DNA of 64,000 nt from a virus. Below the pieces are notes generated by a model. That model searched no databases. It saw nothing but the letters and a program-made list of their open reading frames with translations, and was not told the DNA's origin. Location: the IMG/VR virus record IMGVR_UViG_3300031994_000034; one strand, 5' to 3'. The translations under genes and the position numbers were made by a program. This document shows, one piece after another, positions 4,605 through 50,294 of this stretch. Each line of letters starts with the position of its first letter. The first letter of the stretch is position 1.

Positions 4605-4612
4605 TACCTTTG
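4605..4612 (+). promoter_or_regulatory. Bacteroidota-type -7 box TACCTTTG
   Basis: Exact TACCTTTG followed by CACCAGCTACAAC, upstream of parA. Confidence 0.55.
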
Positions 4613-4798
4613 CACCAGCTACAACATTCTGACAGCCGAGAGCATATACGGACGTGTCCGGCAACCGCATGGCGGCGGCCCCAAGTTTACTTGACGTGGG
4701 CGCAGCACGGCGGGGCATCAGGCAGAGCCTGTTATGCCGAGGCCAAAGAAATGTCGAACTGAGCGAAACGATGTTCAACATTTTATACGTATATTATT

Positions 4799-5635
4799 AT
4801 GGCAAAAAAACAACGAACACACCAGCTACGTCACATCGTAGCCGTGTCAAACAACAAAGGCGGAGCCGGCAAGACCAGCACCGTCCTGAACCTCGCATCG
4901 GCCATCAGCCGGCGCATCGAAGGTTACAGAGTCCTCGTCATCGACTGTGACCCGCAGCGCAACCTCTCCTACTTCCTCGGTTGGGACGACCGACGCGAAC
5001 TGGATGGCTCCCCCACCCTCTACACCGCCCTGTGCAACGAACAGCAGGGGCTTCCAGTCTATCGTGCCGACAACGGCCTGTACTACACTCCGGCCTCCGT
5101 CAACCTGAACGGTATCGACGCCATTCTTTCCCTGCGTCCCAATCCCAGCAAAGCACTGAAGGAAATCCTTTCAAGACCCATCGACAACCGTACCGATGGT
5201 ACTGTGCTCAGCGATTCTGTCGCTGAGAGTTTCGACTTCATCTTCATCGACACCCAGCCCGCCATGTCGCGCATGACCTATAACGCCCTCTACGCTGCAG
5301 ACGGCTACATCATCCCCACAGAACTGGAAGAGGCCAGCGTCAAGGGTATGGCCAACATCGCCGTAGCCGCAGGTAAGGTGGGAGCCGACACGGGCAACCT
5401 CACCATCCACGGTATCCTTATTACCAAACTCGACGCCAAGCTGCGCTCCGCCAAACTCTATGAGCCGCAAATCCGCCAGTCGTTCCGCGAAACCTTCCAG
5501 ACGGCCATCCGCCGCTCCAAGGACATCATCGAGAGTCAAGCCCTCCGCGAGGACGTGTTCACCACCTACTCCGGCGGTCGTGCTGCAGAAGACTATACCG
5601 CCCTCGCCACCGAGTATCTGAGAAAGTTCGCTTAA
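4799..5635 (+). CDS. parA: ParA/Soj-family partition ATPase
   Basis: Deviant Walker A box VSNNKGGAGKTS, then DCDPQ and the downstream ParA-like layout. Confidence 0.9.
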   Translation: MAKKQRTHQLRHIVAVSNNKGGAGKTSTVLNLASAISRRIEGYRVLVIDCDPQRNLSYFLGWDDRRELDGSPTLYTALCNEQQGLPVYRADNGLYYTPASVNLNGIDAILSLRPNPSKALKEILSRPIDNRTDGTVLSDSVAESFDFIFIDTQPAMSRMTYNALYAADGYIIPTELEEASVKGMANIAVAAGKVGADTGNLTIHGILITKLDAKLRSAKLYEPQIRQSFRETFQTAIRRSKDIIESQALREDVFTTYSGGRAAEDYTALATEYLRKFA

Positions 5636-8389: not shown

Positions 8390-8486
8390 AATACTCACCC
8401 TTTAACTCCACGCCGCCAGCCAGCCACCGCGCCGACTGGCGGTTTCTTTTGCCCATCATTCCGCTCATATCCTCGAAATGGCTCGC

Positions 8487-9190
8487 CTCCCGTTAGGACA
8501 AACCTCCATTCGCGTCTGCGAAACGCGCGTGCGTAACGCATCTACAATGAACTCCCGTTAGGACAAACCTTTCTTCTCCCAAGCGTAACGCGCTTAATAT
8601 CAGCCATTCATTGCAAGGTTTGTCCTAACGGGAACCCGCCGTCACACCTCTCCAGTCCGACCTTCCAATATCATCCCGCCCCGGTTCACTCAAAAAACTC
8701 CCATCAGAACAAACCTCTCCAGGTAGAAACTTATAACGTCTTAAAAATCAATAATTAAAATGAAAAAGAAAGAAAACTCCTCGATTCGAGATAAGTATTT
8801 TTTTGTATATTTAAGAATACGATATAGTATATAGACGCGGCGCAGTGGTTGTAAATCAGCTACTTGCGTCAAAAAAAGTTTGTCCTGCCTGGAACTTTTA
8901 TCCGCAAAAGTTTGTCCTGATGGGAACCGAGTTTTGCCCTGCCTGGAATCGTGCTTTGTCTCAGTGGGAGCACAGGTTTGTCCTATCTGGAGGTTTTATT
9001 CATGAGGTTTGTCCTGATGGGAGCCGGCTTTTGTCCTGTCGGGAGGTTTTGTCCCAACGGGAGCACCACCATGCGGTTTGTCCTTTTAGGAAAAGACTTT
9101 TTGTCTTTTCCGGAAATGTAGGTTTATCTTCTTCGGAAACGCACGTTTATCCTTTTCTGAAACCGAAGTTTGTCCTTTTCGGAAGCGGCA
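8487..9190. repeat. iteron array with AT-rich spacer (candidate replication origin)
   Basis: Four copies of GGTTTGTCCTnnnGGGA(G/A)C-type repeats at 8487-8716 (three inverted, one direct). AT-rich block at 8720-8830. Thirteen direct copies at 8877-9185 spaced about 22-23 bp. Confidence 0.75.
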
Positions 9191-9291
9191 AAACATAACT
9201 CTTTGACCAACAAATCAAACGAATTTGAATAAAAAAGTGCTTAAAAATATAATTTTCTCCCTTTTCGTTTGGAGGTTTATTTATTTATTTA

Positions 9292-12444: not shown

Positions 12445-12597
12445 AACACAAACTGAATAAACCAGAGGTATCCGACCAAAGAACCACCGACCGTGAGGTA
12501 CGTTTCATGTTGTAATTCATAAAAGACGACGGATTTCACCACTTCATCCGTCAGCCGTCGCGCCGATGTTGTAGCTTTCTTTGGCGCGGCGGCTTTC
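12445..12597 (+). ncRNA. candidate small RNA
   Basis: TACCTTTG at 12430-12437, no ORF, then two hairpins (GACGGAT..ATCCGTC and GCCGTCGCGCC..GGCGCGGCGGC) followed by TTTCTC. Confidence 0.25.
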
Positions 12598-12795
12598 TCA
12601 ATTCATAGTTCATAGTTCATAGTTCATAGTTCACTTTTCTCAATTCATAGTTCATAGTTCATAGTTCATAGTTCACTTTTCTCAATTCATAGTCCATAGT
12701 TCATAATTCATAGTCCATAATTCATAGTCCATAGTTCATTTCAGTTCACTTTTCTCAATTCATAGTTCATAGTTCATAGTCCATAGTTCCGCTCG
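12596..12795 (+). repeat. largest heptamer array (AGTTCAT/AATTCAT)n with higher-order TTTTCTCAATTCATAG units
   Basis: About 200 bp of 7-nt units punctuated four times by CACTTTTCTCAATTCATAG. Confidence 0.9.
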
Positions 12796-12969: not shown

Positions 12970-13590
12970 ATGTACGAAGAATACCAACTCCATTCAGACC
13001 CGGCATCGCCCTTCTATCACCAGTGGCCACAGGCTCCTGCGCCGTCCGACGGTCCCGACTCGGACCGAATCGGCTGCATCGCCAGCATCATCTCGTGGAC
13101 CATCGCCTTTGTCATCTTGTTCATCCTCTGCGCACTCTCCTCCTGCCGCTCCACGCGCACCGTCGTCGTCGAAGCGCGCGACAGCACCTCGACCCACGTC
13201 CATACCAACACCGTCTTCGTGCCCGACACCATCCTCGTGCCCCTGCCGCCCGAGCGCGTCGTAGTCGTGGCCCCCGACACGGTGTCCGACCTCCGCACCT
13301 CCGTGGCCGAGAGCCATGCCGCCATACGCGGTGGGCTCCTCCACCACGAGCTGCGCAACCTCGACGCGCCCCTGCCCGTGCCGGTGCAGACTAAGGTCAT
13401 CACGCGCGACAGTATCGTCTATCTCGAGCGTGAGGTGCCAGTGCCATACGCCGTCGAAGTCGAAGTGCCGGCGCCCCTCACCTGGTGGCAGCACCTCCGC
13501 CTCTGGCTCGGCAACATCCTCCTCATCGCCCTCGCCCTCGCCGCCGGCTACGGAGCCTTCCGCCTTTGGCGCAAGTTCCACCATCTCTGA
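12970..13590 (+). CDS. membrane protein (two hydrophobic segments)
   Basis: ATG at 12970 within ORF 12916..13590. Hydrophobic segments IASIISWTIAFVILFILCAL and LGNILLIALALAAGYGAF. Confidence 0.6.
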   Translation: MYEEYQLHSDPASPFYHQWPQAPAPSDGPDSDRIGCIASIISWTIAFVILFILCALSSCRSTRTVVVEARDSTSTHVHTNTVFVPDTILVPLPPERVVVVAPDTVSDLRTSVAESHAAIRGGLLHHELRNLDAPLPVPVQTKVITRDSIVYLEREVPVPYAVEVEVPAPLTWWQHLRLWLGNILLIALALAAGYGAFRLWRKFHHL

Positions 13591-13690
13591 GTACTCGGAA
13601 TACTCGGAGGACTCAGAAAACTCAGAGTACTCGGAAAACTCTGAATACTCGGATTACTCGGAATACTCTGAGTACTCCGATTACTCCGAA
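13589..13690. repeat. 9-nt array (TACTCnGAn)n
   Basis: gagtactcggaatactcggaggactcagaaaactcagagtactcgg... about 11 units, self-complementary through GAGTACTC. Confidence 0.9.
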
Positions 13691-13694
13691 AACA

Positions 13695-13726
13695 AAAAAG
13701 GCAGCCCGTCAGGACTGCCTTTTTTC
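13695..13726. terminator. bidirectional terminator between convergent genes
   Basis: AAAAAAGGCAG-CCCGTCAGGA-CTGCCTTTTTT. Confidence 0.6.
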
Positions 13727-16145: not shown

Positions 16146-16847
16146 ATGGCAACTCAAAATTCCAGCCGTGCCCTTAAGGGCAACACCGAGAGCAAGAACG
16201 CTGCAAAGCAAGTGAACAACCAGCCCGCAACCCGTAGGGTTGTCGAGACCCGAGCCATGTGGGATGTGATTTTCAATCACAGCGTCTCGCTGGTGGTGGC
16301 CTATGCACGTGGCCAGAAGCCGACCGACCCTCGCAAAGGCTTTGCCTTTGAAGCTATTGCGACCCAGCCCCACAGTCGAGCCTATGCACAAAACCTCCTC
16401 AGAGGTTTTGTGACAGGCAAGGCCGGCAAAGTCCTGAAGGACTTTGATGACCTATCCAAGGCCGAAAGCCGTGAGAAGATTGCTGTAGCAATCTTGCTCG
16501 ACTGCAAGTTGGCCAAGGAGGGCACCGAAGGTGCCAAGCGCATCTTGGGCAAGGCCACGCCCCAGCGTGAGAAGGCATTCGCCGAGGCAGTTCTTACAGA
16601 ACTGAGCAAACCTACCGAGCAGCCTACTACCCCCAAGGGGGGTAGGGCGAAGAAGTCCGACGACAAGGCTACTGCCCCTAAGGGCAGTAAGGCCAAGGGC
16701 GAGAGCAAGCCTAAGGCTACCACCCCTAAGGGTGGTAAGGCCAAGAGCGAGAGCAAGCCTAAGGCTACCACCCCTAAGGGTGGTAAGGCCAAGAGCGAGA
16801 AGGCAACTGCCCCTAAAGGGGCAAAGGCTAACGGCAAGGCCAAGTAA
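16146..16847 (+). CDS. Lys/Ala/Pro-rich histone-H1-like protein
   Basis: ATG at 16146 in ORF 16089..16847. C-terminal tail reads TTPKGGRAKKSDDKATAPKGSKAKGESKPKATTPKGGKAKSESKPKATTPKGGKAKSEKATAPKGAKANGKAK. Confidence 0.7.
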   Translation: MATQNSSRALKGNTESKNAAKQVNNQPATRRVVETRAMWDVIFNHSVSLVVAYARGQKPTDPRKGFAFEAIATQPHSRAYAQNLLRGFVTGKAGKVLKDFDDLSKAESREKIAVAILLDCKLAKEGTEGAKRILGKATPQREKAFAEAVLTELSKPTEQPTTPKGGRAKKSDDKATAPKGSKAKGESKPKATTPKGGKAKSESKPKATTPKGGKAKSEKATAPKGAKANGKAK

Positions 16848-16884: not shown

Positions 16885-16911
16885 TCACCCCTTAGGGGTG
16901 GGGGTTTTTTG
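16885..16911 (+). terminator. intrinsic terminator
   Basis: TCACCCC-TTAG-GGGTGGGGG followed by TTTTTT. Confidence 0.65.
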
Positions 16912-16914
16912 TTG

Positions 16915-17800
16915 CCGTCCCGATACGTGGGCGGCCACACACGGCCTGGGCGCATAATGCACGCCCACGAATCGCGATCGCGCCCCCGTTCCTTGGGGGT
17001 AGGGTCTGGGGAGGGGGTCGCTGGGTGGACGCCCATAACGGCTTCGGAACGTGGACGGCCACGGCGCGACGGCATGGGCGTCCACCCGTCGCGACATCGT
17101 GGGCGTCCACATCGTCGCTGGTGGGCTTCCATTGTCGGGCTGGGCTTTGGCCGTCCACCTAAACGCGGAGTGGTCGCCCACATGAGGGGAGTGGCAGCCC
17201 CTAAACGCGAAACGACGTGGACGGCCATAACGCATGAACGTGGACTTCCACCTGACGGGAAAATGGACGGCCAGAGGTGCCTAATGGCCGCCCAACGTGG
17301 ACGGGTGTGGACGTCCATTGTGGAGGGTGGTGGTCGCTTATTGGCCGTCCATTGTGGACGGAAGTGGACGCAGGATGTGGGCAGGGGTGGGCGACCATCG
17401 TGGCCTTATCTGGCCGTCCACATTGGACGCGGGTGGTCGCCCATCGTGGACGAAGCTGGACGCTTATTGGCCGCCCATCGTGGGCGGAGGTGGGCGCAGG
17501 GTGTGGGCTTATTGGCCGCCCATCGTGGGCGGAGGTGGGCGCAGGGTGTGGGCTTATCTGGCCGTCCACATTGGATGCGGGTGGTCGCCCATTATGGACG
17601 CGGGTGGTCGCCCATTATGGACGGGAGTTGGACGGCCACCTATCCGCGTGTTGGACCCCCACCTAAAGGCGCAATGGACGGCCACGCGGGTGAAATGGCC
17701 GCCCACCTATTTGCGTTGGCCGCCCACCTGAAGCGCGCATGGACGCAGATGGACGCGCCTTAATTGGGCGCCCACACACGGTGGGCAAGCCTGCTAATCG
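16915..17800. repeat. dense array of TGG(A/G)CG / CG(T/C)CCA motifs, many as 7-3-7 hairpins
   Basis: Hand count of about 28 forward and about 19 inverted copies. Examples: CCGTCCAttgTGGACGG and CCGCCCAtcgTGGGCGG. A perfect 45-bp tandem duplication lies at 17463-17552. Reading frames are open on both strands with no gene signals. Confidence 0.85.
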
Positions 17801-20035: not shown

Positions 20036-20137
20036 ACGGAATTTTGAGTCTGCTATGGGCGGTCGTCGTGACGACGTTTGGCTATCTGCACGCCCATATT
20101 GTGCGAACATTATTATCCACACTATAAAGTTAAAACG

Positions 20138-20697: not shown

Positions 20698-20708
20698 ACT
20701 CTATCATG

Positions 20709-20768
20709 TCACACAGATTACACAGATCACACGGATTTCTTTCTGTGTTATCTGTGCTATCTGTGTGA
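20709..20768 (+). repeat. hairpin built from 3x9-nt repeats (CACAGATnn arm / TCTGTGnTA arm)
   Basis: tcacacagattacacagatcacacgga-tttctt-tctgtgttatctgtgctatctgtgtga, starting 12 nt after a stop codon. Confidence 0.85.
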
Positions 20769-20806
20769 ACTTATCCCAAAAACTCAATCATTCAAAATTC
20801 AAAATT

Positions 20807-21007: not shown

Positions 21008-21011
21008 TTTA

Positions 21012-21073
21012 TCTCACACGGATTCCACGGATGACACGGATTTCTTTCTGTGCTATCTGTGTTATCTGTGTGA
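21012..21073 (+). repeat. 9-nt-repeat hairpin
   Basis: tctcacacggattccacggatgacacgga-tttcttt-ctgtgctatctgtgttatctgtgtga. CACGGA pairs with TCTGTG only through G-U on the + strand. Confidence 0.85.
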
Positions 21074-21093
21074 ACTAAAACTCAAAAAAAACT

Positions 21094-21279
21094 ATGGCAA
21101 AGAAACTATCATGGGACGAAGCACTGCAAAGGTTGCTTCGTGGCGAAAGTGTGAACGCCGCCCGCATCAGTGAGGGTGGCGTCTGCTATCTGCGCCACCA
21201 GGCATGGGCGCACGGCTATCGCCTGGAGGACAGTGGCATCTTTGAGTACAGAACCTATTCATTCACTAAAGCGGCATGA
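21094..21279 (+). CDS. hypothetical protein
   Basis: 61-aa ORF, CTATGG start context. Confidence 0.5.
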   Translation: MAKKLSWDEALQRLLRGESVNAARISEGGVCYLRHQAWAHGYRLEDSGIFEYRTYSFTKAA

Positions 21280-22033: not shown

Positions 22034-22107
22034 CACACGGATTCTTTTTCTGTGCTATCTGTGCTATCTGTGCGACAAAAACATCAACCTATCAAAATTC
22101 AAAAGTT

Positions 22108-22819: not shown

Positions 22820-23770
22820 ATGGCAAACCCAAGAGTGTATGTTGGTACTTATGGCAAGTACAACCGTGGCTCGCTGGCCGGTGGTTGGCTGAGTCTGAAA
22901 GAATGCAAGGACTATCAGGACTTCCTGCGGAAATGTGGCAGACTGCATCGCGGGGAGCACGACCCTGAGTTTATGATACAGGACTGCGAGGACTTCCCAG
23001 ACGGGCTGAATTGCGGCGAGTGGCTATCGGAGCAGGATTTCAAGGATGTTATCGCCGCCTGCGAGGAGGAAGAGCGGCAGGAGTCTGTAGCCGACCGGTT
23101 GCGGGTCGCCCTGCGTGAACGTCTGAAGGCCGACGGCAAGGCTGTCCCTGCTGATGACGAGCAGACGCTGCTGGAGGAATACATGAAGGAGTACGAGAAG
23201 GTGTGGCCCGACGACAAGTCGATGCTGGACTATTGCCGCAAGGAGTTCTCGGGTGCCGTGCGCCTGCAGAACGGCGGCATCCTCTATTTCGAGAAGCCGA
23301 GCATCAAGACGGAGTTTTGCTTCGGCTATTCCACCTGCGGACAGGGCGCAGAGTATGACGAGGCGAACAATGCGGCGCGGTCGGCGAGGACGGAGGGCTA
23401 CTTCCTGCACGCCAACCTGGACGAGATGGACGAGCGCATCCGTGCGCTGGAACTGAACTGTTGCTATCCCGAAGGGGAGTGGAATGGCACCTACGACAAC
23501 CTAACGTGGTACATTCAGCGGAAGAGCTATTGCAGCCAAAAGGAGGAACTGAACTTGTTCGAGTTCCGCGCCTGGCGCGAATACGACGTGGAGAACGAGC
23601 CGTGGCGATACACGCCGGGCAGTTACGAGAAGATGTCGGACGCCGACCGCATGACTATCCTCGGCGGCATGAAGCGTGAGCGAGAGAAGTTCGAGAAGCG
23701 GCTGCGTGCCTATCTGAAACGCTACGGCACCACGAAGCTACGCACATGGACCTACTGGCTGGACGAATAG
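22820..23770 (+). CDS. ardA: protein with ArdA-like antirestriction N-terminal domain
   Basis: RVYVGTYGKYNRGSLAGGWLSL...EHDPEFMIQDCEDFP matches the ArdA N-domain pattern (xYVxxLxxYNxGxLxGxW ... E(E/D)xxIxDxExxP). Confidence 0.6.
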   Translation: MANPRVYVGTYGKYNRGSLAGGWLSLKECKDYQDFLRKCGRLHRGEHDPEFMIQDCEDFPDGLNCGEWLSEQDFKDVIAACEEEERQESVADRLRVALRERLKADGKAVPADDEQTLLEEYMKEYEKVWPDDKSMLDYCRKEFSGAVRLQNGGILYFEKPSIKTEFCFGYSTCGQGAEYDEANNAARSARTEGYFLHANLDEMDERIRALELNCCYPEGEWNGTYDNLTWYIQRKSYCSQKEELNLFEFRAWREYDVENEPWRYTPGSYEKMSDADRMTILGGMKREREKFEKRLRAYLKRYGTTKLRTWTYWLDE

Positions 23771-23809: not shown

Positions 23810-23870
23810 AATTCACAATTCATAATTCACAATTCATAATACACAATTCATAATTCATAATTCATAATTA
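23810..23870 (+). repeat. heptamer array (AATTCAC/AATTCAT)n
   Basis: caattcacaattcataattcacaattcataatacacaattcataattcataattcataatt, between two + genes. Confidence 0.9.
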
Positions 23871-24933: not shown

Positions 24934-24983
24934 GTGACTTTTTCAATGCACAGTTCATAATGCATAATTCATAATTAAATCAG

Positions 24984-25061: not shown

Positions 25062-25226
25062 ATGGCAAGCATGTATGTGACTATACGCATCGACTATGAT
25101 GCACCCATCGAGACGGACATGGAGACTATCGCAGGGATGGTGTGCGAACGGGCTAACGCTCACAATCACACCATCGAGGATGGCGTGACGATCGAGAATG
25201 TGGAACTATGTGGGATTAACGAATAA
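25062..25226 (+). CDS. hypothetical small acidic protein
   Basis: Hand-translated 54 aa: MASMYVTIRIDYDAPIETDMETIAGMVCERANAHNHTIEDG... CTATGG start context, 11 nt upstream of the RT start. Confidence 0.45.
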   Translation: MASMYVTIRIDYDAPIETDMETIAGMVCERANAHNHTIEDGVTIENVELCGINE

Positions 25227-25237
25227 AGCAAGAAACT

Positions 25238-26830
25238 ATGGACAAGATATTATCAATGTTTTTCGAGGCAGGGCGGTGGGAATACGCCATTGCCAAGGGT
25301 GTGGGTAAGGACGTTCCGAAGAACGTGTTGTACCAACTATGCAAGCCAGAAGTGCGGATGCAGATGTACGAGGCTATCCGCACGGGACAGTACGAGATTG
25401 CACCGCCACATACGGCACTTATCCCGAAGGATACGCCAGGCGAGTTCCGCACGGTGTATGTGAACGAGGCAGCTGACCGTGTGCTGCTATCCATTGCCAA
25501 CGACCTGCTGTTTGAGTTGATGCCAGACAGGGTGCATCCGCGTTGCAAGTCGTACTTGAAAGGTGTTGGTTGTGGGAGGATAGTGCAGGAAGTCAGTACG
25601 GCCATCCTTGCGGCAAAACCGCAAGGTACAGAGAAATTGGGCTGGAAGAGCGACCTGAGTAAGTATTTCGACTCGGTACCTATCCGATTCATAGATGCTG
25701 CCTTCGACATGGTAGAGGAACGGCACGGACATTCGGCCCTGATCGATGTACTGCGAAAGTATTACCATGCCGACCTCTATTTCACTCCCGATGGGGTGCT
25801 GGAAAGCAAGTACCAAAGTCTGAAGCAGGGTTGCTCGGTGGCATCGTGGCTGGCCGACGTCTTACTCTATCACATCGACGAGCGACTGACTAAGTTGAAC
25901 GGCTATTACGTCCGCTATTCGGACGATATGCTCTTTATCGGGCCGGATGCAGAGCAGGCTATGCAGGTCCTCACGGAGGAACTGGCAGCTATGGAAATGC
26001 GGCTCAACCCTAAGAAGGTGGAGTGGCTGGACGAGCGGCACTGGTTTAAGTTCCTGGGCTTCTCTATCCGTGGCAAGGACATCAGTCTGAGCAGTACGAG
26101 AATCAAGACGTTTCAGAGGGAGATTGAGAACAGGACAGTGAAAAGTGGAAAATCTAAGTTCACAATCACTTCGGCTCTCAACTCCGTGAACCGCTATCTG
26201 TATCGTGGCGACGGACAGGGGCATTCGTGGGCAACGCAAGTGCTGCCTATCGTGAACGTAAGACAGGACATCGCCACGCTGAACCTGTTCGTGATGGACT
26301 GTCTGCGGGCTGCCTGTACGGGCAAGACGAAAGTGGGCGGTCTGGGCTATGACAAGCAGGGTAGGGACGGCTGCATCGTCCGTGGCAGGGGCAGGAATGT
26401 GAGTGCCAACCGCAGGAAGACGGGCGACGACATCGGCGGCTATCTGTCGCTGAGCTGTATGCAGAACGCGATGCGGACGAGCAAGGCGGCGTATGACTCG
26501 CTGGTGCGCTCACTCAACTTCTCGCAGAAAACGCAGAAAGCGCAGAAATCTGATGCTACGAGCATCGAGGAACTGGAGGCGGCGTATGCGGTGTATAAGC
26601 ACTCCATTCCGAGCGAAAGGACGATGGGGCGTGTGCCTCGCTTCTATGCGCTGCCCGAAAGCGAGTTGAGCAATGACGATATGCTCTATGGCGTTCCCCG
26701 TGAACAGGCGGAGCGCGAATTGGAGAAGGTGCTGGCAGGGTTCACGATGCCTGAAGGGGCAGGGTGGTTCTGGCAGAGCGAGAACGACAAGGACTTGGTG
26801 GTGCTGCGCTCATGGTGCAGTGCCGCATAG
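25238..26830 (+). CDS. reverse transcriptase (unclassified prokaryotic RT)
   Basis: RT motifs in order: IPKDTPGEFRTVYV (1), ADRVLLSIANDLL (2), KSDLSKYFDSVP (3), LKQGCSVASWLADVLL (4), YVRYSDDMLFIG with YSDD at 25916-25927 (5), MRLNPKKV (6), FKFLGFSI (7). A 230-aa C-terminal extension has no recognisable domain. Confidence 0.9.
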   Translation: MDKILSMFFEAGRWEYAIAKGVGKDVPKNVLYQLCKPEVRMQMYEAIRTGQYEIAPPHTALIPKDTPGEFRTVYVNEAADRVLLSIANDLLFELMPDRVHPRCKSYLKGVGCGRIVQEVSTAILAAKPQGTEKLGWKSDLSKYFDSVPIRFIDAAFDMVEERHGHSALIDVLRKYYHADLYFTPDGVLESKYQSLKQGCSVASWLADVLLYHIDERLTKLNGYYVRYSDDMLFIGPDAEQAMQVLTEELAAMEMRLNPKKVEWLDERHWFKFLGFSIRGKDISLSSTRIKTFQREIENRTVKSGKSKFTITSALNSVNRYLYRGDGQGHSWATQVLPIVNVRQDIATLNLFVMDCLRAACTGKTKVGGLGYDKQGRDGCIVRGRGRNVSANRRKTGDDIGGYLSLSCMQNAMRTSKAAYDSLVRSLNFSQKTQKAQKSDATSIEELEAAYAVYKHSIPSERTMGRVPRFYALPESELSNDDMLYGVPREQAERELEKVLAGFTMPEGAGWFWQSENDKDLVVLRSWCSAA

Positions 26831-26879
26831 ACTATTCGCCACCGCACAGTGGCTATCCCTGCGTAGGGCGGCGCATCTT

Positions 26880-27255
26880 TAAGGTGCCGGCGTTTCAAAC
26901 ACGGGTTTCACTGGAGCCCATCTGGCAGATTTCCCAGATTGGCTCGGTTCAGCCCGTGCCACGCCGGCACTTATCATCGACGGAATAAAGACGATGTGCC
27001 AGGCCGCAAGGCGCAGGGAAGAGGGTAGCGCATACTGCCTATACAGACTATCAGAACGGCACAATTCAGCAATTCGAGCTATTAAGTCTTCTTTCACGTC
27101 GAACCCTTCGGGTCCGCAGGTACGGCGCTTCGCCGCTTCCGCTGGCTTCGCAGCCAGTACCTGCGGAACCGGGCGGGTCGCGTTCAGAAGACCAAAGCTC
27201 GAATCTTCATCGACACCATAAAGCGCTATGCCGCGCCGTGAGGATGGACTGAAAA
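26880..27255 (+). ncRNA. structured RNA module A (RT-adjacent)
   Basis: Nested helices GTGCCGGCG(26884)/CGCCGGCAC(26962), CACGGG/CCCGTG, GAGCC-ATCTGG/CCAGAT-GGCTC. Long-range TTCGAGCT..GTCTTC / GAAGAC..AGCTCGAA enclosing CCGCAGGTAC/GTACCTGCGG. No ORF. Confidence 0.6.
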
Positions 27256-27291
27256 ACAAAATTATCAACCATTTCAAAACTTAAAATCATT

Positions 27292-28380
27292 ATGAAGACT
27301 ATCAACAACGACGTGAACAACAACATGAGTAACAACAACGAGACAAAGGTGATGTGTCCTGTATGCGGCACGGAGTTCGCCATCGGCGAGCACGAACACA
27401 GAGTGAAGAACGCTGTCAGCATCGGCAAGGACAGTGGGCTGGGTGAGGTCTATCTGCCTGTGAGCAAGCGAGGCGACGCGCTGAAGGCTGCGGGCGTAGA
27501 TACGACGAAGTATTTCTCCATCAACCTGCCTACGGGTGGCAGTCAACTGATGAAGATGACGGACGGGGGTGTGCCTGTGGCAGTGACGGACGACGACCCT
27601 ATCATGGCGGCTATCCGCACACAGGGCACGGTACCTAACCGCTCGCTGTTCCGCCGCTGGGTGATGAGTCAGGTGTTCCACGGCTTGCAGTGTTCGGGCG
27701 GTTTCACGCAGTGGCTGAAGTGGCACGGCTATAAGTATCAGTGGGAGATGCTGGTGGAGGAACTGCGTGTGCAGGCCAAGCTCTACGGCAAGGACATGGA
27801 GAACTATGACGCCCGCAACCGTTGGTTTAACCGTGAACTGGCTGTGACGATGGCGAAGGACTATGTGGAGCAGCTGCGCAAGGATGCACACAAACGTCCG
27901 ACGCACAAGTGCAAGGGTGTGCCCTACATCCGCTTCTCGAACGAGAACTATTTCGTGAGCGACATCGAGAAGAAATTGATTACTCCCGTACATACACGTA
28001 TCGTCGCCATCGAGAGGGCAAAGAATCCTCAGCAACTCTACGATGCCGTGCGTAACTTCTGGTGGAAAATGCCAAGCGGCAGTCAGTATTACGACCAGTG
28101 CGCCGCATGGAAGGATGCCTATAAGGGCATGGGTGCCTATGCCACGATGCAGAACCTGCTGCGCTTCCACGGCTGCGGTTTTCCCAACGGCAACCAGTTC
28201 TATCATGCCCGTCTGTCCAACCTGCAAATGCTGGAGAATGCTGCTAAGGCATACGCCAATGGTGAGGGCTGGCGTCTGTTCGGTCTGATGAAGCAGATGC
28301 TGGAGATGAACGGCATCGACATCAAGGCAAAGATGCAGGAGTGGGCGCAGGCAAAGAAGGCTAAGAACCTGCGCCGATAA
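27292..28380 (+). CDS. hypothetical protein with N-terminal CxxC zinc-ribbon-like motif
   Basis: 362-aa ORF (MKTINNDVNNN..VMCPVCGTEFAIGEHEH...) bracketed by the RNA modules. No family recognised. Confidence 0.65.
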   Translation: MKTINNDVNNNMSNNNETKVMCPVCGTEFAIGEHEHRVKNAVSIGKDSGLGEVYLPVSKRGDALKAAGVDTTKYFSINLPTGGSQLMKMTDGGVPVAVTDDDPIMAAIRTQGTVPNRSLFRRWVMSQVFHGLQCSGGFTQWLKWHGYKYQWEMLVEELRVQAKLYGKDMENYDARNRWFNRELAVTMAKDYVEQLRKDAHKRPTHKCKGVPYIRFSNENYFVSDIEKKLITPVHTRIVAIERAKNPQQLYDAVRNFWWKMPSGSQYYDQCAAWKDAYKGMGAYATMQNLLRFHGCGFPNGNQFYHARLSNLQMLENAAKAYANGEGWRLFGLMKQMLEMNGIDIKAKMQEWAQAKKAKNLRR

Positions 28381-28434
28381 GCCATACACGAAAAGGCCGT
28401 GCGACCTATCCGCTGTGAGACGTGCAGACATTTT

Positions 28435-28800
28435 AGTCGATCAGGATTTCAACCTGTACGTTCATCTCGTGAGGTCCGACATCCATATTGGAATGCGGAC
28501 CTCCACGAGATGACCTTACAGGCCATCCTGATTGTCTCATCGACACGATACAGACACGCACCATGCACGGAGCACAGCGACTATACACCCCAGCACAGGG
28601 GACGGGCACTGCAAGACAGACGCAATTTAGTGAACAGTAGATAAGGGAAGGCGGCCTGCATCCGTCGTATCCCTATTGTTATACGACGGCTGGAACCGCC
28701 TTCGTATCTCACTGTTGACATCGAACGAGTAAAGACGATGTGCCGAGTCTGTGAGCAGTGACCTATCAGGGAGCGCACCCTATCATGCCGCAAGACATCC
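28435..28800 (+). ncRNA. structured RNA module B-I
   Basis: GATCAGGAT(28439)/ATCCTGAT(28525) enclosing CCTGTA/TACAGG and CATCTCGTGAGGTCCG/CGGACCTCCACGAGATG. Then the ATCGAC..ATACAG signature and the hairpin CCGTCGTAT/ATACGACGG. Confidence 0.55.
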
Positions 28801-28809
28801 ACGCTTTTC

Positions 28810-29105
28810 AAAGCGCCGGTTCACAGTTTGCCTGGGTTCCACTGGGATATTCCCAGTTCCCCAGGTAAGTTGCACCGGCACTTATCGAACCTATACAGCC
28901 ATGCGCCGAGGATGGTGAGCGACAACGGGAACGGCTGCGCATACAGCCTATGAGGTTTGCAGAGCGGAACTTTCAAACGACATCAGACTTAGATAAGCTC
29001 GCCTCAGTTAGGGCGGCCAGCCTACCCGCTGGCGGCCTTAACGAGGAGAGCTCCCTCTGATGCCCATATCAACCGAATAAAGCACTATGCCAGTCCGCGA
29101 GGCAG
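28810..29105 (+). ncRNA. structured RNA module B-II
   Basis: GCCGGT/ACCGGC, CCTGGG/CCCAGG and ACTGGG/CCCAGT replace the module A helices with compensatory changes. A 15-bp hairpin GTTAGGGCGGCCAGC/GCTGGCGGCCTTAAC has a + strand G-U pair. Confidence 0.6.
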
Positions 29106-29151
29106 ACGAAAAAAGAAGGTACAACTTAAAACAAAAATACGCAATAAAATT

Positions 29152-29496
29152 ATGAAAATTAAATCATCTATCGGAAAGAATGTGAACGAGGCGGTGAAAA
29201 ACTGCCGTGAGGTATTGGCAAACGAAACCGTGAACCTGCTGAAGCAGATGCGTGTAGAGCCAGGGCAGGAGGTGCTGTTCAAGAGGGCGCTGTTCCTCTA
29301 TCAGCACAAGGGAATGACCACTGAGACCATTGTCTGCGACCGCATCGCCTACTTCGGACGTGAGGGCAGCGAACCCTATTACATCGTCAGCATGGGCAAG
29401 GACGAGTACGTATCGCCAAAGAGCAATCTTTTTCTCTCGACAGACAGTCTGCAGGGTATCTACGAAGAGGTACGCCGCGTGGTGAGGGAAGAATAA
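29152..29496 (+). CDS. hypothetical protein
   Basis: 114-aa ORF. Confidence 0.55.
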   Translation: MKIKSSIGKNVNEAVKNCREVLANETVNLLKQMRVEPGQEVLFKRALFLYQHKGMTTETIVCDRIAYFGREGSEPYYIVSMGKDEYVSPKSNLFLSTDSLQGIYEEVRRVVREE

Positions 29497-31930: not shown

Positions 31931-32121
31931 TGACAACGAGAGCTATCAACGCAGCACTGCTCGCCGGAAAGGTGGTGGTGCTCAGGGACGACCCGCTGCT
32001 GTGTATCGTCCCCGACCTGTGGGGCGAGCTGGTGGTGGTGAGCCGAGGGCAGGAACCCTTCGACACCCGACCGGCTACTCCGAGCGACAAACGAAAAGCG
32101 GTCATCCTAATCAATTCATAA
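31927..32121 (+). CDS. hypothetical protein
   Basis: 64-aa ORF with an ATGA start-stop overlap with the upstream gene. Confidence 0.5.
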   Translation: MMTTRAINAALLAGKVVVLRDDPLLCIVPDLWGELVVVSRGQEPFDTRPATPSDKRKAVILINS

Positions 32122-32169
32122 TTCATAATTCATAATGCACAATTCATAATTCACAATTCATAATTTACT

Positions 32170-33636
32170 ATGACAACAATGAACTACAACATCGTCAAGA
32201 CTGCTGAGGGCAGCATGACGACGTACCGAGTGGTCGGTGCGGAACAGGCGGACAATCAGGCTATCTGTCAGGCTCTGACGGAGGCGGCCAAGGATGTGTG
32301 GCAGTACCTGACGGCAATGCCCGGTGCCTATACCGCCACCGAGATGAGAAAGACGGACCTTAGCCTGCGCAACGGATTGGAACTCCCCATGGAGTTGCAC
32401 ACGCTGCGTGTGGAGTGCGGAAAGTTCAACCTCTGTGTGAAGCCCATCGACGACTATGGGAAGCCAAACTACAGCACTATCTTCCGTGTGCTGACCGAGT
32501 TTGAGAAGTTGGCTCGTGTGAAGCAGGGCGACCGCGCTGTGTTCACGGTGGGCAAGGAACTGGGTGCGCTGGTGTGCGAGGCTCGTGTGGTGTTGCCAAG
32601 CGACATGAAGGCCATCTGCGCCTGCTGCGGTGACGACCCCCTGTACCCTTCGATGAGCTATCCCGCCCTCGACCTCGACCGCCGTTGCATCGTGGCTACG
32701 GACGCTGTGCTGATGGTGGCGAAGAAAGTCACCGTAGCCTCTATTCACTACGAGGACAAGGTACCCGAGACGTTCTACCTGCCCAAGGAGGTGGAGCGGA
32801 TGCAGGGTGAAGTGACGGTCCGGCTGTATGAGCAGGGCTGCACGGTCACGGACCAGAAGGGCACGGAGGTGAGCGTGGAGCATGAGAGGCCTTATCCCAA
32901 GTGGCACACGGTATGGCCGCCGTTGCGCGGTGGCATGACCCTCGTGGACAGCAAGGCATGGACAAAGGTGGTGAAGAGTGCCATGAACGGGATGCCGCAG
33001 AATAGCAAGTTGAAGGACGAGTCGCTGTTGCTGACCCACTATCCCGCATCGGCCAACCTCACGCTGAGGGGCTATGATGGTGCAGAGATGGTGAACGAAC
33101 AGTGTATCACGGACTGCGTGGCGACCGACGAGGTACCCTACCGCATAGGAGTGTACGCACCGCGACTGCTGAAAGCCCTGGCCTTGCAGCCCAAGACGAT
33201 GTGGATGGGATATTCGGAGTATGACACGCGGCCTACCCGCCTGGTGATGGAGAACGCAGAGGCGGAGATGGTGGTGGAACTCTATCGGTATGACGTGGAC
33301 GACCTGCGCGATGCGCTGATGCCGACGGATGAGGAGTATGTGGTGAGCGACACCCGCCGCCTCTATCACTGCTACGACAAGGACGGCTGGCTGCTGGAGC
33401 GGGTGGAAACGAAATATCCCACCTGTGGAGAGCTGAAGACTCAGAGTAATCTGAGTACTCCGACTACTCAGAGGACTCTGAGGGCTCGGAGAACTCCGAC
33501 TACTCAGAGTACTCCGACTACTCCGATTACTCAGAGTACTCCGACTATTCGGACTACTCCGACTACTCAGACCACCGCACCACTATCTCTCGCTGACCGA
33601 CTGCGCGAGGCCCTGCGGGCACGACTGGCAGCGTGA
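32170..33636 (+). CDS. beta-sliding-clamp-like protein with 9-mer-repeat-encoded Thr/Pro/Gln tail
   Basis: Segments RRCIVATDAVLMVAKK and ERPYPKWHTVWP resemble the DnaN patterns ATDghRLa and fPdY..viP. The tail TQSNLSTPTTQRTL..TPTTQSTPTTPITQSTPTIRTTPTTQTT comes from the array at 33439-33573. Confidence 0.45.
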   Translation: MTTMNYNIVKTAEGSMTTYRVVGAEQADNQAICQALTEAAKDVWQYLTAMPGAYTATEMRKTDLSLRNGLELPMELHTLRVECGKFNLCVKPIDDYGKPNYSTIFRVLTEFEKLARVKQGDRAVFTVGKELGALVCEARVVLPSDMKAICACCGDDPLYPSMSYPALDLDRRCIVATDAVLMVAKKVTVASIHYEDKVPETFYLPKEVERMQGEVTVRLYEQGCTVTDQKGTEVSVEHERPYPKWHTVWPPLRGGMTLVDSKAWTKVVKSAMNGMPQNSKLKDESLLLTHYPASANLTLRGYDGAEMVNEQCITDCVATDEVPYRIGVYAPRLLKALALQPKTMWMGYSEYDTRPTRLVMENAEAEMVVELYRYDVDDLRDALMPTDEEYVVSDTRRLYHCYDKDGWLLERVETKYPTCGELKTQSNLSTPTTQRTLRARRTPTTQSTPTTPITQSTPTIRTTPTTQTTAPLSLADRLREALRARLAA

Positions 33637-33709
33637 GCAATTCATAATGCACAATTCACAATGCACAATTCATAATTCACAATTCATAATTCATAATTCA
33701 TAATTGACT

Positions 33710-37328: not shown

Positions 37329-37414
37329 GTATAATTTGACCTACGGTCGAAGTTCCTTACGCTCGGCAAAGCTCATGCAAGCATGGCTGTGCGCTTGCTT
37401 AATCGGAACTTTCT
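37329..37414 (+). repeat. 85-nt dispersed leader element, copy 2
   Basis: gtataatttgacctacggtcgaagttccttacgctcggcaaagctca...gcttaatcggaactttc. The hairpin GACCtacGGTC corresponds to GACCtgcGGTC in copy 1. Confidence 0.75.
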
Positions 37415-37458
37415 GTGCTATCTGTGCTATCTGTGTGACATTAAAAACAAGAAAGAAT

Positions 37459-37836
37459 ATGACGAAGTATATTATCAGCTGCAACATTGACAAGGATGGT
37501 TGGGGTAAATATGTTCCTGGCCAGAAATGCCGTAATGTGTCGCTACACGAACTGACTGCCTACTACTATTGGCCTGACGTAGTGAGAATGTTTTTCCTCG
37601 AAATGTGCGATCATGGGCTGCCCGACTCTATCACCTTCAAGAAGGATGGTGTAAAGATAACGGCCAAGATGACATGGAAGGCAGGGAAAGAGTGGATAGA
37701 ATTCCGACCCGTGAGTGAAGAATATGCCAAGCAGGAAGGCTACATCGAAATGCGCGACATAGACTGGATTGAACATCTACGCACCGACCTGAAGAACAAT
37801 ACCCGTACTTTGTTGAATGGACAGCCTACAAAGTAG
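37459..37836 (+). CDS. hypothetical protein
   Basis: ATG at 37459 (MTKYIISCNID...) in ORF 37315..37836. Confidence 0.6.
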   Translation: MTKYIISCNIDKDGWGKYVPGQKCRNVSLHELTAYYYWPDVVRMFFLEMCDHGLPDSITFKKDGVKITAKMTWKAGKEWIEFRPVSEEYAKQEGYIEMRDIDWIEHLRTDLKNNTRTLLNGQPTK

Positions 37837-37837
37837 T

Positions 37838-37999
37838 ATGACTGGCATCTATGGCCTCACCTTGCGGGCCTCGGACGGACGGGAACGACGCACGTTGGCG
37901 TGGCTCCCCACCGAGGCTATCCGGCAGGACTTCTACGAGAAAGCCCGACGCAACGGGATAAGTATAGTTATCAATTCACAATTCACAATTCACAATTAA
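37838..37999 (+). CDS. hypothetical small protein
   Basis: ATG at 37838. The C-terminus INSQFTIHN and the stop are supplied by a heptamer array. Confidence 0.4.
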   Translation: MTGIYGLTLRASDGRERRTLAWLPTEAIRQDFYEKARRNGISIVINSQFTIHN

Positions 38000-38012
38000 C
38001 AATTAAAAGACT

Positions 38013-49099: not shown

Positions 49100-49432
49100 A
49101 TGAACTACCATGTAAAAGAAAAATGGGTCTCCAAACCGTGTAATTGCAGAAATGAGTTTGCGACGCCACGCGACCATCATCAGTATGGATATGAGACTGA
49201 ACATGATTTTTCAGCTGCTCTCCATAGACTGCACAGCCGATGGTCGGGCTGGACGGGTACGGAGATCGGCAGGCGCAACGGCTTCATCCGTCTGCGCTTC
49301 GTGGGCGTCTATGGCGACGTGAGCAACGTGTGGCTCCCGGACTTCATGCTGGAGCGCGTGCCGGAGCCGATGGGCGACACGAGTGGCGACAGCACGGAGG
49401 AGCTGCTTGACGAGATATTCAAGTTCGACTAA
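49100..49432 (+). CDS. hypothetical protein
   Basis: 110-aa ORF, CTATG start context. Confidence 0.55.
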
Positions 49433-49446
49433 ATACACCAATCACC

Positions 49447-49590
49447 ATGACAAGAGAACAGTATATAGAGCGCATGGCCCGTGCGATGTACGGCGAGCGC
49501 TGGCAGTGTGCCGAGGCACAAGAGAAGGCCTCCCGCATGGCGGACAAGGCGGCTGCGGTATATCCATTCGACACGGAGGAACAACCATGA
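49447..49590 (+). CDS. hypothetical small protein
   Basis: Hand-translated 47 aa: [51 protein letters not shown] overlap with infA. Confidence 0.4.
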
Positions 49591-49814
49591 GCAAGCAAGA
49601 TTTCATCAAGACTAAGGGCAAAGTGACGGAAGCCCTCGGCGGCGACCGCTTTCGCGTGGAGTTGGAGAATGGTGCCGTCATCCTCGGCACACTCTCGGGC
49701 AAGATGCGGCAACGGCATATCCGCGTGATGCCAGGCGATGCGGTGGAAGTGGAAATGTCGCCCTACGACCTTACGCGGGGACGGATAGCATACAGGTATA
49801 ACAAACAACGATAG
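49587..49814 (+). CDS. infA: translation initiation factor IF-1 homologue
   Basis: [71 protein letters not shown] aligns along its length with bacterial InfA (..[18 protein letters not shown]...IRIL.GD.V.VE.SPYDL.KGRI..R). Confidence 0.85.
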
Positions 49815-49823
49815 ACATACGAT
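49714..49823 (+). repeat. 110-bp direct repeat, copy 1 (3' end of infA)
   Basis: ggcatatccgcgtgatgccaggcgatgcgg...gatagacatacgat. Four mismatches to 50185-50294. Confidence 0.9.
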
Positions 49824-49824
49824 T

Positions 49825-50184
49825 ATGGCAACAATGAATTTCTTCCTCTCTATCTGTGGAGTGATAGCCTACGTGGCGATGGCGTATCTGGCCATCACGG
49901 CCTATGTCCGCTTGCGGCATGTAGGCTCGAAACTGGACGAGCTGCAAGCCACGACGGCAAAATTGTGCGCCCTGGTGTCGGCCTTGAAGCTGCAGAGCGA
50001 TTTCGACCACATCAACGACATGAAGGACACCCTTCGGCAGCTCGTAGAGGCCGAGCGGTTTGAAGATGCTGCGAAACTGCAAGCCGTCATCGCCGAACAG
50101 GAAGAGCTTGCGCTGAAGAACATGAAGGCGCTTCAGGATTCCTACGGTGGCAAGGAACTGGTGGTGCGCATAGGACGTAAGTGA
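49825..50184 (+). CDS. membrane-anchored protein with UVR-like motif
   Basis: N-terminal TM segment [41 protein letters not shown] resembles a UvrB/C-type motif. Confidence 0.55.
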
Positions 50185-50294
50185 GGCATATCCGCGTGAT
50201 GCCAGGCGATGCGGTAGAAGTGGAAATGTCGCTCTACGACCTTACGCGTGGACGGATAGCATACAGGTACAACAAACAACGATAGACATACGAT
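50185..50294 (+). repeat. 110-bp direct repeat, copy 2 (non-coding infA 3' relic)
   Basis: See 49714-49823. It begins right after the TGA at 50182-50184. Confidence 0.9.

Follow-up and report, generated by a model that had tools for sequence, protein, structure and literature searches.

The DNA analysed here is a stretch of 64,000 nucleotides from a virus (IMG/VR record IMGVR_UViG_3300031994_000034; the whole stretch is called the window below), and the subject is a reverse transcriptase (RT) locus lying between positions 25,062 and 29,151 on the + strand. Two open reading frames (ORFs) are confirmed there, 25238..26830 (+, 530 aa) and 27292..28380 (+, 362 aa), together with two blocks that hold no credible + strand ORF, 26831-27291 and 28381-29151; an earlier note on this DNA had placed all four correctly. 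Along the + strand, the order is an RT fused to a small accessory protein (sORF), two non-coding RNA (ncRNA) units, a large accessory protein (bORF), and four further ncRNA units. The locus is read here, with high confidence, as a UG27 retroelement, probably carried by a large phage; its six units are presumably copied into single-stranded DNA (ssDNA) hairpins, and phage counter-defence is the best guess for the role. The host of the carrier phage is probably Prevotella.

UG27 was defined by Mestre et al. 2022 (PMC9226505) as a Class 2 UG/Abi group with the accessory clusters 346 and 337, and the PADLOC hidden Markov models for RT groups and accessory clusters derive from the 2022 UG/Abi classification. 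In the UG27 RT-sORF fusion of the window (25238..26830, +), the RT domain (aa 1-426, nt 25238-26515, +) aligns with RT_UG27 over profile positions 2-420 of 420 (E 1.5e-208, 690.9 bits), the next-best PADLOC RT group being UG26 at E 1.1e-31. The sORF-like domain (aa 427-530, nt 26516-26827, +) is matched over aa 427-528 by RTas346, the model of the UG27 small accessory protein (E 3.1e-22), and the 362-aa ORF is matched over aa 18-352 by RTas337, the model of the large accessory protein (E 2.2e-112). A Pfam scan finds RVT_1 alone in the RT ORF and no domain in the 362-aa ORF, and the NCBIfam matches of the locus proteins all lie below their cut-offs. The catalytic YSDD is situated at aa 227-230 (nt 25916-25927, +), where the earlier note had located it; among 47 homologues, no variation is seen at Y227 and D230, and almost none at S228 and D229. 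Motif 4 reads LKQGCSVASW in the translation, which contains the motif-4 string LKQGCSVASWLADVLL quoted in that note. Upstream of the RT, a small ORF of 54 aa (25062..25226) is probably not part of the UG27 system, because none of 16 related loci contains a homologue.

The fusion of the sORF to the RT is not an assembly artefact, since full-length fused RT homologues of 512-579 aa form more than 100 clusters at 90% identity, two of which are labelled as Prevotella or Prevotellaceae metagenome-assembled genomes. An exhaustive search with the sORF domain returned 308 representatives, nearly all of them standalone proteins of 130-160 aa, with one full-length RT fusion at 50% clustering. The C-terminal 85 aa of the RT ORF are likewise 47% identical to a free-standing protein, gp80 of Bacteroides phage BS-TP1. 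As judged from the sequences, the fusion is a single lineage, and it belongs most likely to Prevotella phages. In another UG27 lineage, the 369-aa protein P0298 carries the sORF (aa 34-127) fused to a bORF-like C-terminal region, which is 24% identical to aa 102-352 of the window bORF (E 7e-15), the zinc-knuckle N-terminus being absent. The sORF is joined to the RT in one lineage and to the bORF in the other, and therefore provides Rosetta-stone support for an RT-sORF-bORF complex. Such a ternary complex has been predicted for UG27 with AlphaFold 3 (bioRxiv 10.64898/2026.09.22.753630). In each of two much larger proteins, P0247 (1051 aa) and P0370 (1021 aa), a portion of the sORF-like domain is matched 7-8 times in tandem.

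In the AlphaFold 2 (AF2) model of the fused RT, the core is confident, and residues 384-488 have a predicted local distance difference test score (pLDDT) <50, so that the model is uninformative on the docking of the sORF domain. The nearest solved folds of the RT core are group II intron RTs, DRT9, G2L4, the RT of diversity-generating retroelements (DGRs), DRT2, and retron RTs. By sequence, the RT matches only distant group II and retron-type RT domains among solved structures, and no solved UG27 structure was found in these fold and sequence comparisons.

The bORF (27292..28380, +; RTas337 family) is 45% identical to gp82 of BS-TP1 and has 1259 homologues, of which the 120 listed contain no Pfam domain. 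Its N-terminus contains a zinc-knuckle-like segment of the form CPxCG...HEH, which reads CPVCG in the translation; among the homologues, C22 and C25 (C22-P-x-C25-G) and H34 are invariant, and H36 is nearly so. The AF2 model is mostly helical (pLDDT 73.7), with residues 1-59 below 50. A Foldseek search of the model against the PDB gave no match at E <0.5, and a PDB profile search gave only a 16-aa match to a LysW zinc ribbon (E 0.019). Structure prediction, which the earlier note had proposed as a check, thus showed a resemblance to known RT folds for the RT core and no counterpart in the PDB at that threshold for the bORF.

A structured ncRNA was predicted in the spacer adjoining the UG27 RT when the group was defined (PMC9226505). 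A preprint of 24 September 2026 describes variable arrays of ~150-nt ncRNA units in UG27 spacers, each unit with a basal hairpin, a pseudoknot, and an asymmetric internal loop that carries UUYA and AUCNNNNNNNUANAG (bioRxiv 10.64898/2026.09.22.753630). Both motifs of the UG27 array are found at the locus, and all six units carry the published signatures UUYA and AUCN7UANAG, with UUYA situated 80-147 nt 5' of each AUC. In the 64-kb window, ATCN7TANAG has nine hits against 5.5 expected by chance, and six of these nine lie on the + strand of the spacers, within 1.2 kb of spacer (26976, 27209, 28539, 28720, 28884, and 29068). A covariance model (CM R1), whose seed comprises 22 units taken from the window and from five related loci, places six contiguous head-to-tail units of 165-232 nt in a 2 + 4 arrangement, twice as many as the three modules that the earlier note had counted. 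A seventh + strand hit of the motif, at 20115, is a chance occurrence, because the CM run with filters off gives no unit there. At Rfam gathering thresholds, no family matched anywhere in the whole window, and an E-value scan of 26800-29200 returned only a chance match to mir-M7 (E 0.34); an Rfam match of the flanking blocks, which the earlier note had named as contrary evidence, is therefore absent. A scan for tRNA and tmRNA genes found none. From the start of the RT to the end of the array, no + strand terminator-like site appeared in a scan, which is compatible with one transcript; this promoter and terminator scan was uninformative, its sigma-70 consensus being inappropriate for Bacteroidota.

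The fold of a unit was derived from the sequences alone, independently of the published figure. From 5' to 3', a unit consists of a hairpin P1, the 5' arms of P2a and P2b, UUYA, a long central hairpin, AUCN7UANAG, a pseudoknot arm, and the 3' arms of P2b and P2a. P1 is a 5' basal hairpin with a 6-nt loop of consensus (C/A)GCAYA, and the basal stem is split into P2a and P2b by a purine-rich internal loop. Further inward, an asymmetric internal loop presents UUYA on its 5' side and AUCN7UANAG on its 3' side. The pseudoknot comprises 5 bp between the P1 loop and the bases just 3' of UANAG, and the central hairpin is specific in sequence to each unit. For the N7 spacer of AUCN7UANAG, no consistent pairing partner was found by eye. 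Some units of the related contig L004 (e.g. 9027-9191 and 8449-8631) have GUC in place of AUC at the predicted start (GTCAA... and GTCAG...), so that conservation of the start triplet is not strict at its first position.

Extensive covariation accompanies the scaffold. In 38 aligned units from related phage contigs, 94.1% of the cells in 21 scaffold and pseudoknot pairs are standard pairs, compared with 67.4% after shuffling, and none of 500 shuffles reaches the observed pairing. Compensatory changes occur in 21 of the 21 pairs of P1, the pseudoknot, P2a, and P2b, and the pairing falls to 24-44% when the partners are slid by 1-3 columns. The pseudoknot is 95.8% paired though it is absent from the CM structure. 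In a separate test, in which P1 was chosen by hairpin geometry alone, 30 of 37 units show full complementarity in the pseudoknot, which appears in five covarying sequence types, and 0 of 5000 shuffles reach 30. Within the central hairpin, compensatory changes occur in 18 of 36 predicted pairs among orthologues of unit 4 and in 19 of 40 among orthologues of unit 5. When all unit types were pooled, MAFFT with RNAalifold recovered the basal stem alone, because the central hairpins fail to align across unit types; alignments of orthologous units and the CM were therefore needed. Compared by verbal description, the unit fold, including the pseudoknot, agrees with the published UG27 fold.

All six units lie on the + strand, and each carries the motif. 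Unit 1 (26832..27019) is a seed member of the CM at 105 bits and is also supported by its fold. P1 spans 26838-26853 (loop 26843-26848), P2a pairs 26856-26863 with 27012-27019, and P2b pairs 26868-26872 with 27003-27007; UUYA is located at 26878-26881, AUCN7UANAG at 26976-26990, and the 3' arm of the pseudoknot at 26995-26999, giving a predicted template of 101 nt (26878-26978). Unit 2 (27020..27251), the longest, is a non-seed hit of 34.2 bits (E 2e-6 over the whole window). Its stems are P1 27023-27040, P2a 27048-27052/27243-27247, and P2b 27056-27060/27235-27239, and its signals are UUYA 27065-27068, AUCN7UANAG 27209-27223, and the pseudoknot arm 27227-27231, with a predicted template of 147 nt (27065-27211).

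Beyond the bORF, unit 3 (28389..28582) is another non-seed hit, at 21.8 bits with filters off. It contains P1 at 28394-28407 with an 8-nt loop, P2a at 28412-28417/28573-28578, and P2b at 28422-28426/28564-28568; UUYA lies at 28432-28435 and AUCN7UANAG at 28539-28553, and the pseudoknot arm 28557-28561 (CGCAC) pairs with GUGCG in the P1 loop. The predicted template has 110 nt (28432-28541). Unit 4 (28581..28763), a seed member at 117 bits, has P1 28588-28601, P2a 28605-28612/28755-28763, P2b 28616-28621/28747-28752, UUYA 28626-28629, AUCN7UANAG 28720-28734, the pseudoknot arm 28739-28743, and a predicted template of 97 nt (28626-28722). Unit 5 (28763..28927), the shortest and a seed member at 105 bits, has P1 28768-28781, P2a 28786-28791/28919-28924, P2b 28796-28800/28910-28914, UUYA 28807-28810, AUCN7UANAG 28884-28898, the pseudoknot arm 28902-28906, and a predicted template of 80 nt (28807-28886). 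The last, unit 6 (28927..29110), likewise a seed member at 105 bits, has P1 28933-28948, P2a 28955-28960/29102-29107, P2b 28964-28968/29094-29098, UUYA 28972-28975, AUCN7UANAG 29068-29082, the pseudoknot arm 29086-29090, and a predicted template of 99 nt (28972-29070).

Similar arrays accompany the RT in its relatives, as a check with a covariance model, suggested in the earlier note, bore out. In related IMG/VR contigs, the same motif is arrayed 3' of the RT with a spacing of 155-230 nt. In the relatives with a fused RT, units lie on both sides of the bORF (5 + 5 in L002, 2 + 6 in L003, 1 + 6 in L005, 2 + 5 in L006, and 1 + 5 in L014), and in the unfused relatives the order is RT, array, sORF, and bORF. 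Among close relatives, the number of units ranges from ~5 to 10. L006 and L014 additionally possess a UG27 unit upstream of the RT (4610-4826 and 4642-4827, E 4e-7 and 8e-9, respectively); unlike them, the window has no ncRNA unit upstream of the RT, its place being taken by the unconserved ORF 25062-25226. Templates 3, 4, and 5 have nucleotide orthologues at 81-92% identity in related phages: template 3 shares 81% identity over 100 nt with its counterpart unit in L002, template 4 is 92% identical to a unit of L003, and template 5 has orthologues in L002, L006, L004, and L005. Templates 1, 2, and 6 have diverged past blastn detection, with their scaffolds still conserved, and the scaffold of unit 6 is nearly identical to those of the last units of L002, L003, and L005. 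The RT relatives reside on IMG/VR viral contigs of 52-145 kb and in two GenBank phage records; among the 72,556 plasmids of PLSDB, no RT relative was found.

One of the closest points of comparison is the Bacteroides phage BS-TP1 (PQ571274, L016), a cultured phage of virulent type with a genome of ~112 kb, in which gp79-gp82 correspond to the system: the RT is 68%, the sORF (gp80) 47%, and the bORF (gp82) 45% identical to those of the window. In BS-TP1, the RT (420 aa, 79351-80613) is unfused, and the order is RT, array, sORF, gp81, and bORF. A 1.35-kb ORF-free stretch (80614-81962) follows the RT, in which the CM detects at least one unit. In the BS-TP1 record, the UG27 RT is labelled 'tail protein' and the region of the RNA array is unannotated; the RT has as neighbours the gene of a putative immediate-early protein and that of an RtcB-like 'tRNA splicing ligase'.

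In the five UG27 systems characterised by experiment, complementary DNAs (cDNAs) of 50-100 nt map to the central hairpins, and their synthesis starts at AUC, ends after UUYA, and requires YSDD, the sORF, and the bORF (bioRxiv 10.64898/2026.09.22.753630). All five are integrated prophages of human-gut hosts, namely Bacteroides sp. 2-1-16, Bacteroides sp. 9-1-42FAA, Alistipes putredinis, Blautia hansenii, and Bacteroides coprophilus, and the published cDNAs show no complementarity to phage or host genomes (same preprint). The present locus shares with these systems the RT family with YSDD, both accessory protein families, and head-to-tail units with UUYA, AUCN7UANAG, a basal hairpin, a pseudoknot, and a unit-specific central hairpin; it also has units in more than one intergenic region and is probably phage-borne. 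We infer by homology that the copying reaction at the locus is the same as in the characterised systems. The RT, its sORF domain, and the bORF would then act jointly; reverse transcription would start at the AUC of each unit, copy the central hairpin, and stop after UUYA, and the output would be six different ssDNA hairpins of ~80-147 nt. During early infection, the phage may use such a set of hairpins as decoys for host proteins or as their ligands.

Several details are new at this locus: the RT-sORF fusion lineage, the array split 2 + 4 around the bORF, which differs from the tested systems, and the longer predicted templates. The RT-sORF fusion is unmentioned in the main text of both PMC9226505 and bioRxiv 10.64898/2026.09.22.753630, and the pipeline of the latter expected RTs of 380-450 aa. 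Some of these details, with a number of others, weigh against the interpretation as a UG27 element of a phage that produces counter-defence hairpins. The tested systems have a separate sORF, and here it is fused to the C-terminus of the RT. The units measure 165-232 nt, compared with published modes of 149 and 167 nt, and the predicted templates of 80-147 nt reach 110 and 147 nt, compared with published cDNAs of 50-100 nt; units 2 and 3 are weak against the CM (34 and 22 bits). The cDNA reaction ascribed to the locus would be that of its homologues, from which it is taken, and the case for counter-defence is argued from gene neighbourhood and distribution only. When the six templates were searched against the window with blastn-short, only chance matches of up to 13 nt were obtained. 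A PHROGs scan of 20 window ORFs found no phage structural gene, and the window encodes a ParA-like protein, so that a phage-plasmid lifestyle is possible.

Other RT systems with adjacent RNAs were compared with the locus. Like UG27, retrons have a structured ncRNA beside the RT, from which a short abundant ssDNA hairpin is made, with start and stop set by the RNA structure. They differ in their RT clade, in having one upstream RNA template per RT, in the 2'-5' branched product, in their effectors, and in a host-defence role, and none of these last four features was found at the locus. DRT2 (UG2) and DRT9 (UG28) possess a related RT fold, belong to Class 2 UG/Abi, and use a neighbouring structured ncRNA as template; however, each has a single ncRNA and no sORF or bORF partner, and both are host-encoded defence systems. 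The DRT2 product is a long concatemeric cDNA, unlike the short UG27 hairpins. The DRT9 product is a long poly-dA. As candidate families for the RT itself, several were tried and rejected: DRT2 (NF041746, Drt2, 45.5 bits against a cut-off of 390), DRT9 (PADLOC Drt9, E 1e-17 against 1.5e-208 for UG27), group II introns (TIGR04416, 75 bits against a cut-off of 300, with no Rfam intron match), DGRs (no pair of template and variable repeats (TR/VR), no long direct repeat near the RT, and motif 4 LKQGCSVASW), and retrons (PADLOC E 1.8e-8 and NCBIfam 32 bits against a cut-off of 235, with the RNAs downstream and arrayed and no Rfam match).

The earlier note had proposed an orphan RT with a featureless C-terminus, in a layout of no described class, and had accepted in advance that an RT inside an established clade would speak against it. 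A categorically new RT-ncRNA system would account for the sparse general annotation, that is, RVT_1 as the only Pfam domain, the blank 362-aa ORF, the empty Rfam scan, the sub-threshold NCBIfam matches, and the lack of a solved structure for the fold of the accessory protein. Nevertheless, the orphan status and the undescribed layout are refuted and such a system is very improbable, as the PADLOC UG27 models match all three protein parts, including the supposedly featureless C-terminus, and every unit bears the UG27 RNA motifs already published. The RT falls within UG27 with its partner elements present, which is the outcome named in advance as contrary. The CxxC protein that the note had called unassignable does contain the cysteines but belongs to the RTas337 family. 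The locus is a further member of the established UG27 family, with an RNA array and products that are already described, and no new class. Right in kind was the idea of a phage-like element on which an RT uses repeated structured ncRNAs beside it as templates; the locus was well spotted from raw sequence, and the finding is real. No more credible than a new class is the possibility that the element is retron-like, with RNA blocks that correspond to msr-msd and yield branched multicopy ssDNA. The RT does stand beside structured RNA, short hairpin ssDNA is reported for its homologues, and retron RTs are among its fold neighbours, but the retron RT models, with E of 1.8e-8 to 5.6e-8, fall far short of UG27 with 1.5e-208, the RNAs form a downstream six-fold array without a match to the curated retron RNAs of Rfam, and a retron-type effector gene is absent.

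For the role of the hairpins, counter-defence falls a little short of an even chance, and it is favoured because of the phage-only distribution, the ArdA and orphan methyltransferase neighbours, and the gain and loss of units between related phages. The converse, that UG27 is a host or lysogen system of anti-phage defence or superinfection exclusion whose cDNAs are sensors or effectors triggered by incoming phage, draws on the defence function of the Class 2 UG/Abi members DRT2 and DRT9 with their ncRNA templates, on the closeness of the RT fold to both, and on the prophage location of the five tested systems, prophages often bearing defence genes. This converse is unlikely: UG27 occurs mostly in predicted gut phages of Bacteroidetes and Firmicutes and shows no defence-island enrichment (PMC9226505), it is overwhelmingly phage-borne, including BS-TP1 near a gene annotated as immediate-early, the present locus adjoins anti-restriction genes, not defence genes, and UG27 cDNA is made constitutively in E. 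coli without infection (bioRxiv 10.64898/2026.09.22.753630). Alternatively, the hairpins could serve the DNA metabolism of the phage, for instance by priming replication or forming origin structures, in packaging, or as ligands regulating phage proteins. With this would fit the primase-like 1171-aa ORF and the ParA-like protein of the window, and the conservation of several templates at 81-92% between phages could suit a housekeeping ligand. Still, it is improbable, given that the templates are not complementary to the rest of the window and that close relatives differ from ~5 to 10 in unit number; the absence of the system from most tailed phages speaks against an essential part in replication. 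Within the counter-defence interpretation, a more specific proposal is made tentatively and is itself rather doubtful: the array would constitute a library of ssDNA hairpins, modular and evolving fast, which as decoys or ligands neutralise host immune sensors or nucleases early in infection, and the sORF would physically bridge the RT and the bORF in a particle that recognises every unit by its conserved scaffold. The bridging part of this proposal is suggested by the two fusions of the sORF, with the RT at this locus and with the bORF in another lineage.

The surroundings of the locus are as follows. An ArdA anti-restriction gene (22820-23770, Pfam) lies upstream of the RT, and ArdA together with a 349-aa ORF is found upstream of the RT both here and in L003. 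The window also contains three DNA methyltransferase genes, a ParA-like gene, and a 1171-aa ORF with a primase-like segment. In the intergenic spacers directly upstream of many ORFs, heptamer tandem arrays (AATTCAT/CAATTCA, 3-26 copies) are present, at 23810-23869, 32112-32165, 33638-33705, and 37968-38004 (+), at 1420-1473 and 2322-2353 (reverse complement), and at 12594-12789; the longest, TTCATAG x26, occupies an AT-rich stretch at ~12.6 kb. A short heptamer copy (24957-24977), followed by an inverted repeat with 23-nt arms (24983-25005/25023-25045), is situated just upstream of the operon of the small ORF and the RT. These arrays may be shared promoter, operator, or iteron-like elements of the phage. 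A second intergenic repeat family of ~60-77 nt (CTTTCTGTGCTATCTGTGCTATCTGTGTGA...), which differs from the heptamer arrays, precedes several + strand ORFs (20706-20797, 21011-21102, 22046-22104, and 37409-37467) and comprises putative regulatory repeats.

Further repeats occur elsewhere in the window. A direct repeat of 110 nt, the only one of that length in the window, has copies at 49714-49823 and 50185-50294, which share 96% identity at a distance of 471 nt; it covers the 3' terminus of ORF 49383..49814 as well as the sequence immediately following ORF 49825..50184. This repeat is not a DGR TR/VR pair, because its four differences fall at G, C, G, and T, and none at A. Coding tandem repeats are situated at 16624-16847, 17148-17705, 13550-13716, and 33405-33598, and include a 48-nt type, which encodes a lysine/alanine-rich protein tail, and a degenerate type of 45-150 nt within ORF 16909..17763. 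Coding repeats of the 9-nt TACTCGGAA type are common to two distant ORFs.

UG27 is among the few RT systems that are overwhelmingly phage-encoded, and its output, a set of different short ssDNA hairpins from one array, is unlike that of retrons, DRT2, and DRT9. The covariation, analysed without the published model, independently supports the published fold of the unit, including the pseudoknot. Meanwhile, the natural RT-sORF fusion, together with the sORF-bORF fusion elsewhere, supports the ternary complex and offers a simpler, two-protein version of the system for biochemistry. The conserved position beside ArdA and the orphan methylases makes the counter-defence hypothesis worth testing; if the proposal of a hairpin library is true, the UG27 array would parallel, at the level of nucleic acid, protein-coding anti-defence genes like the ArdA gene next to it.

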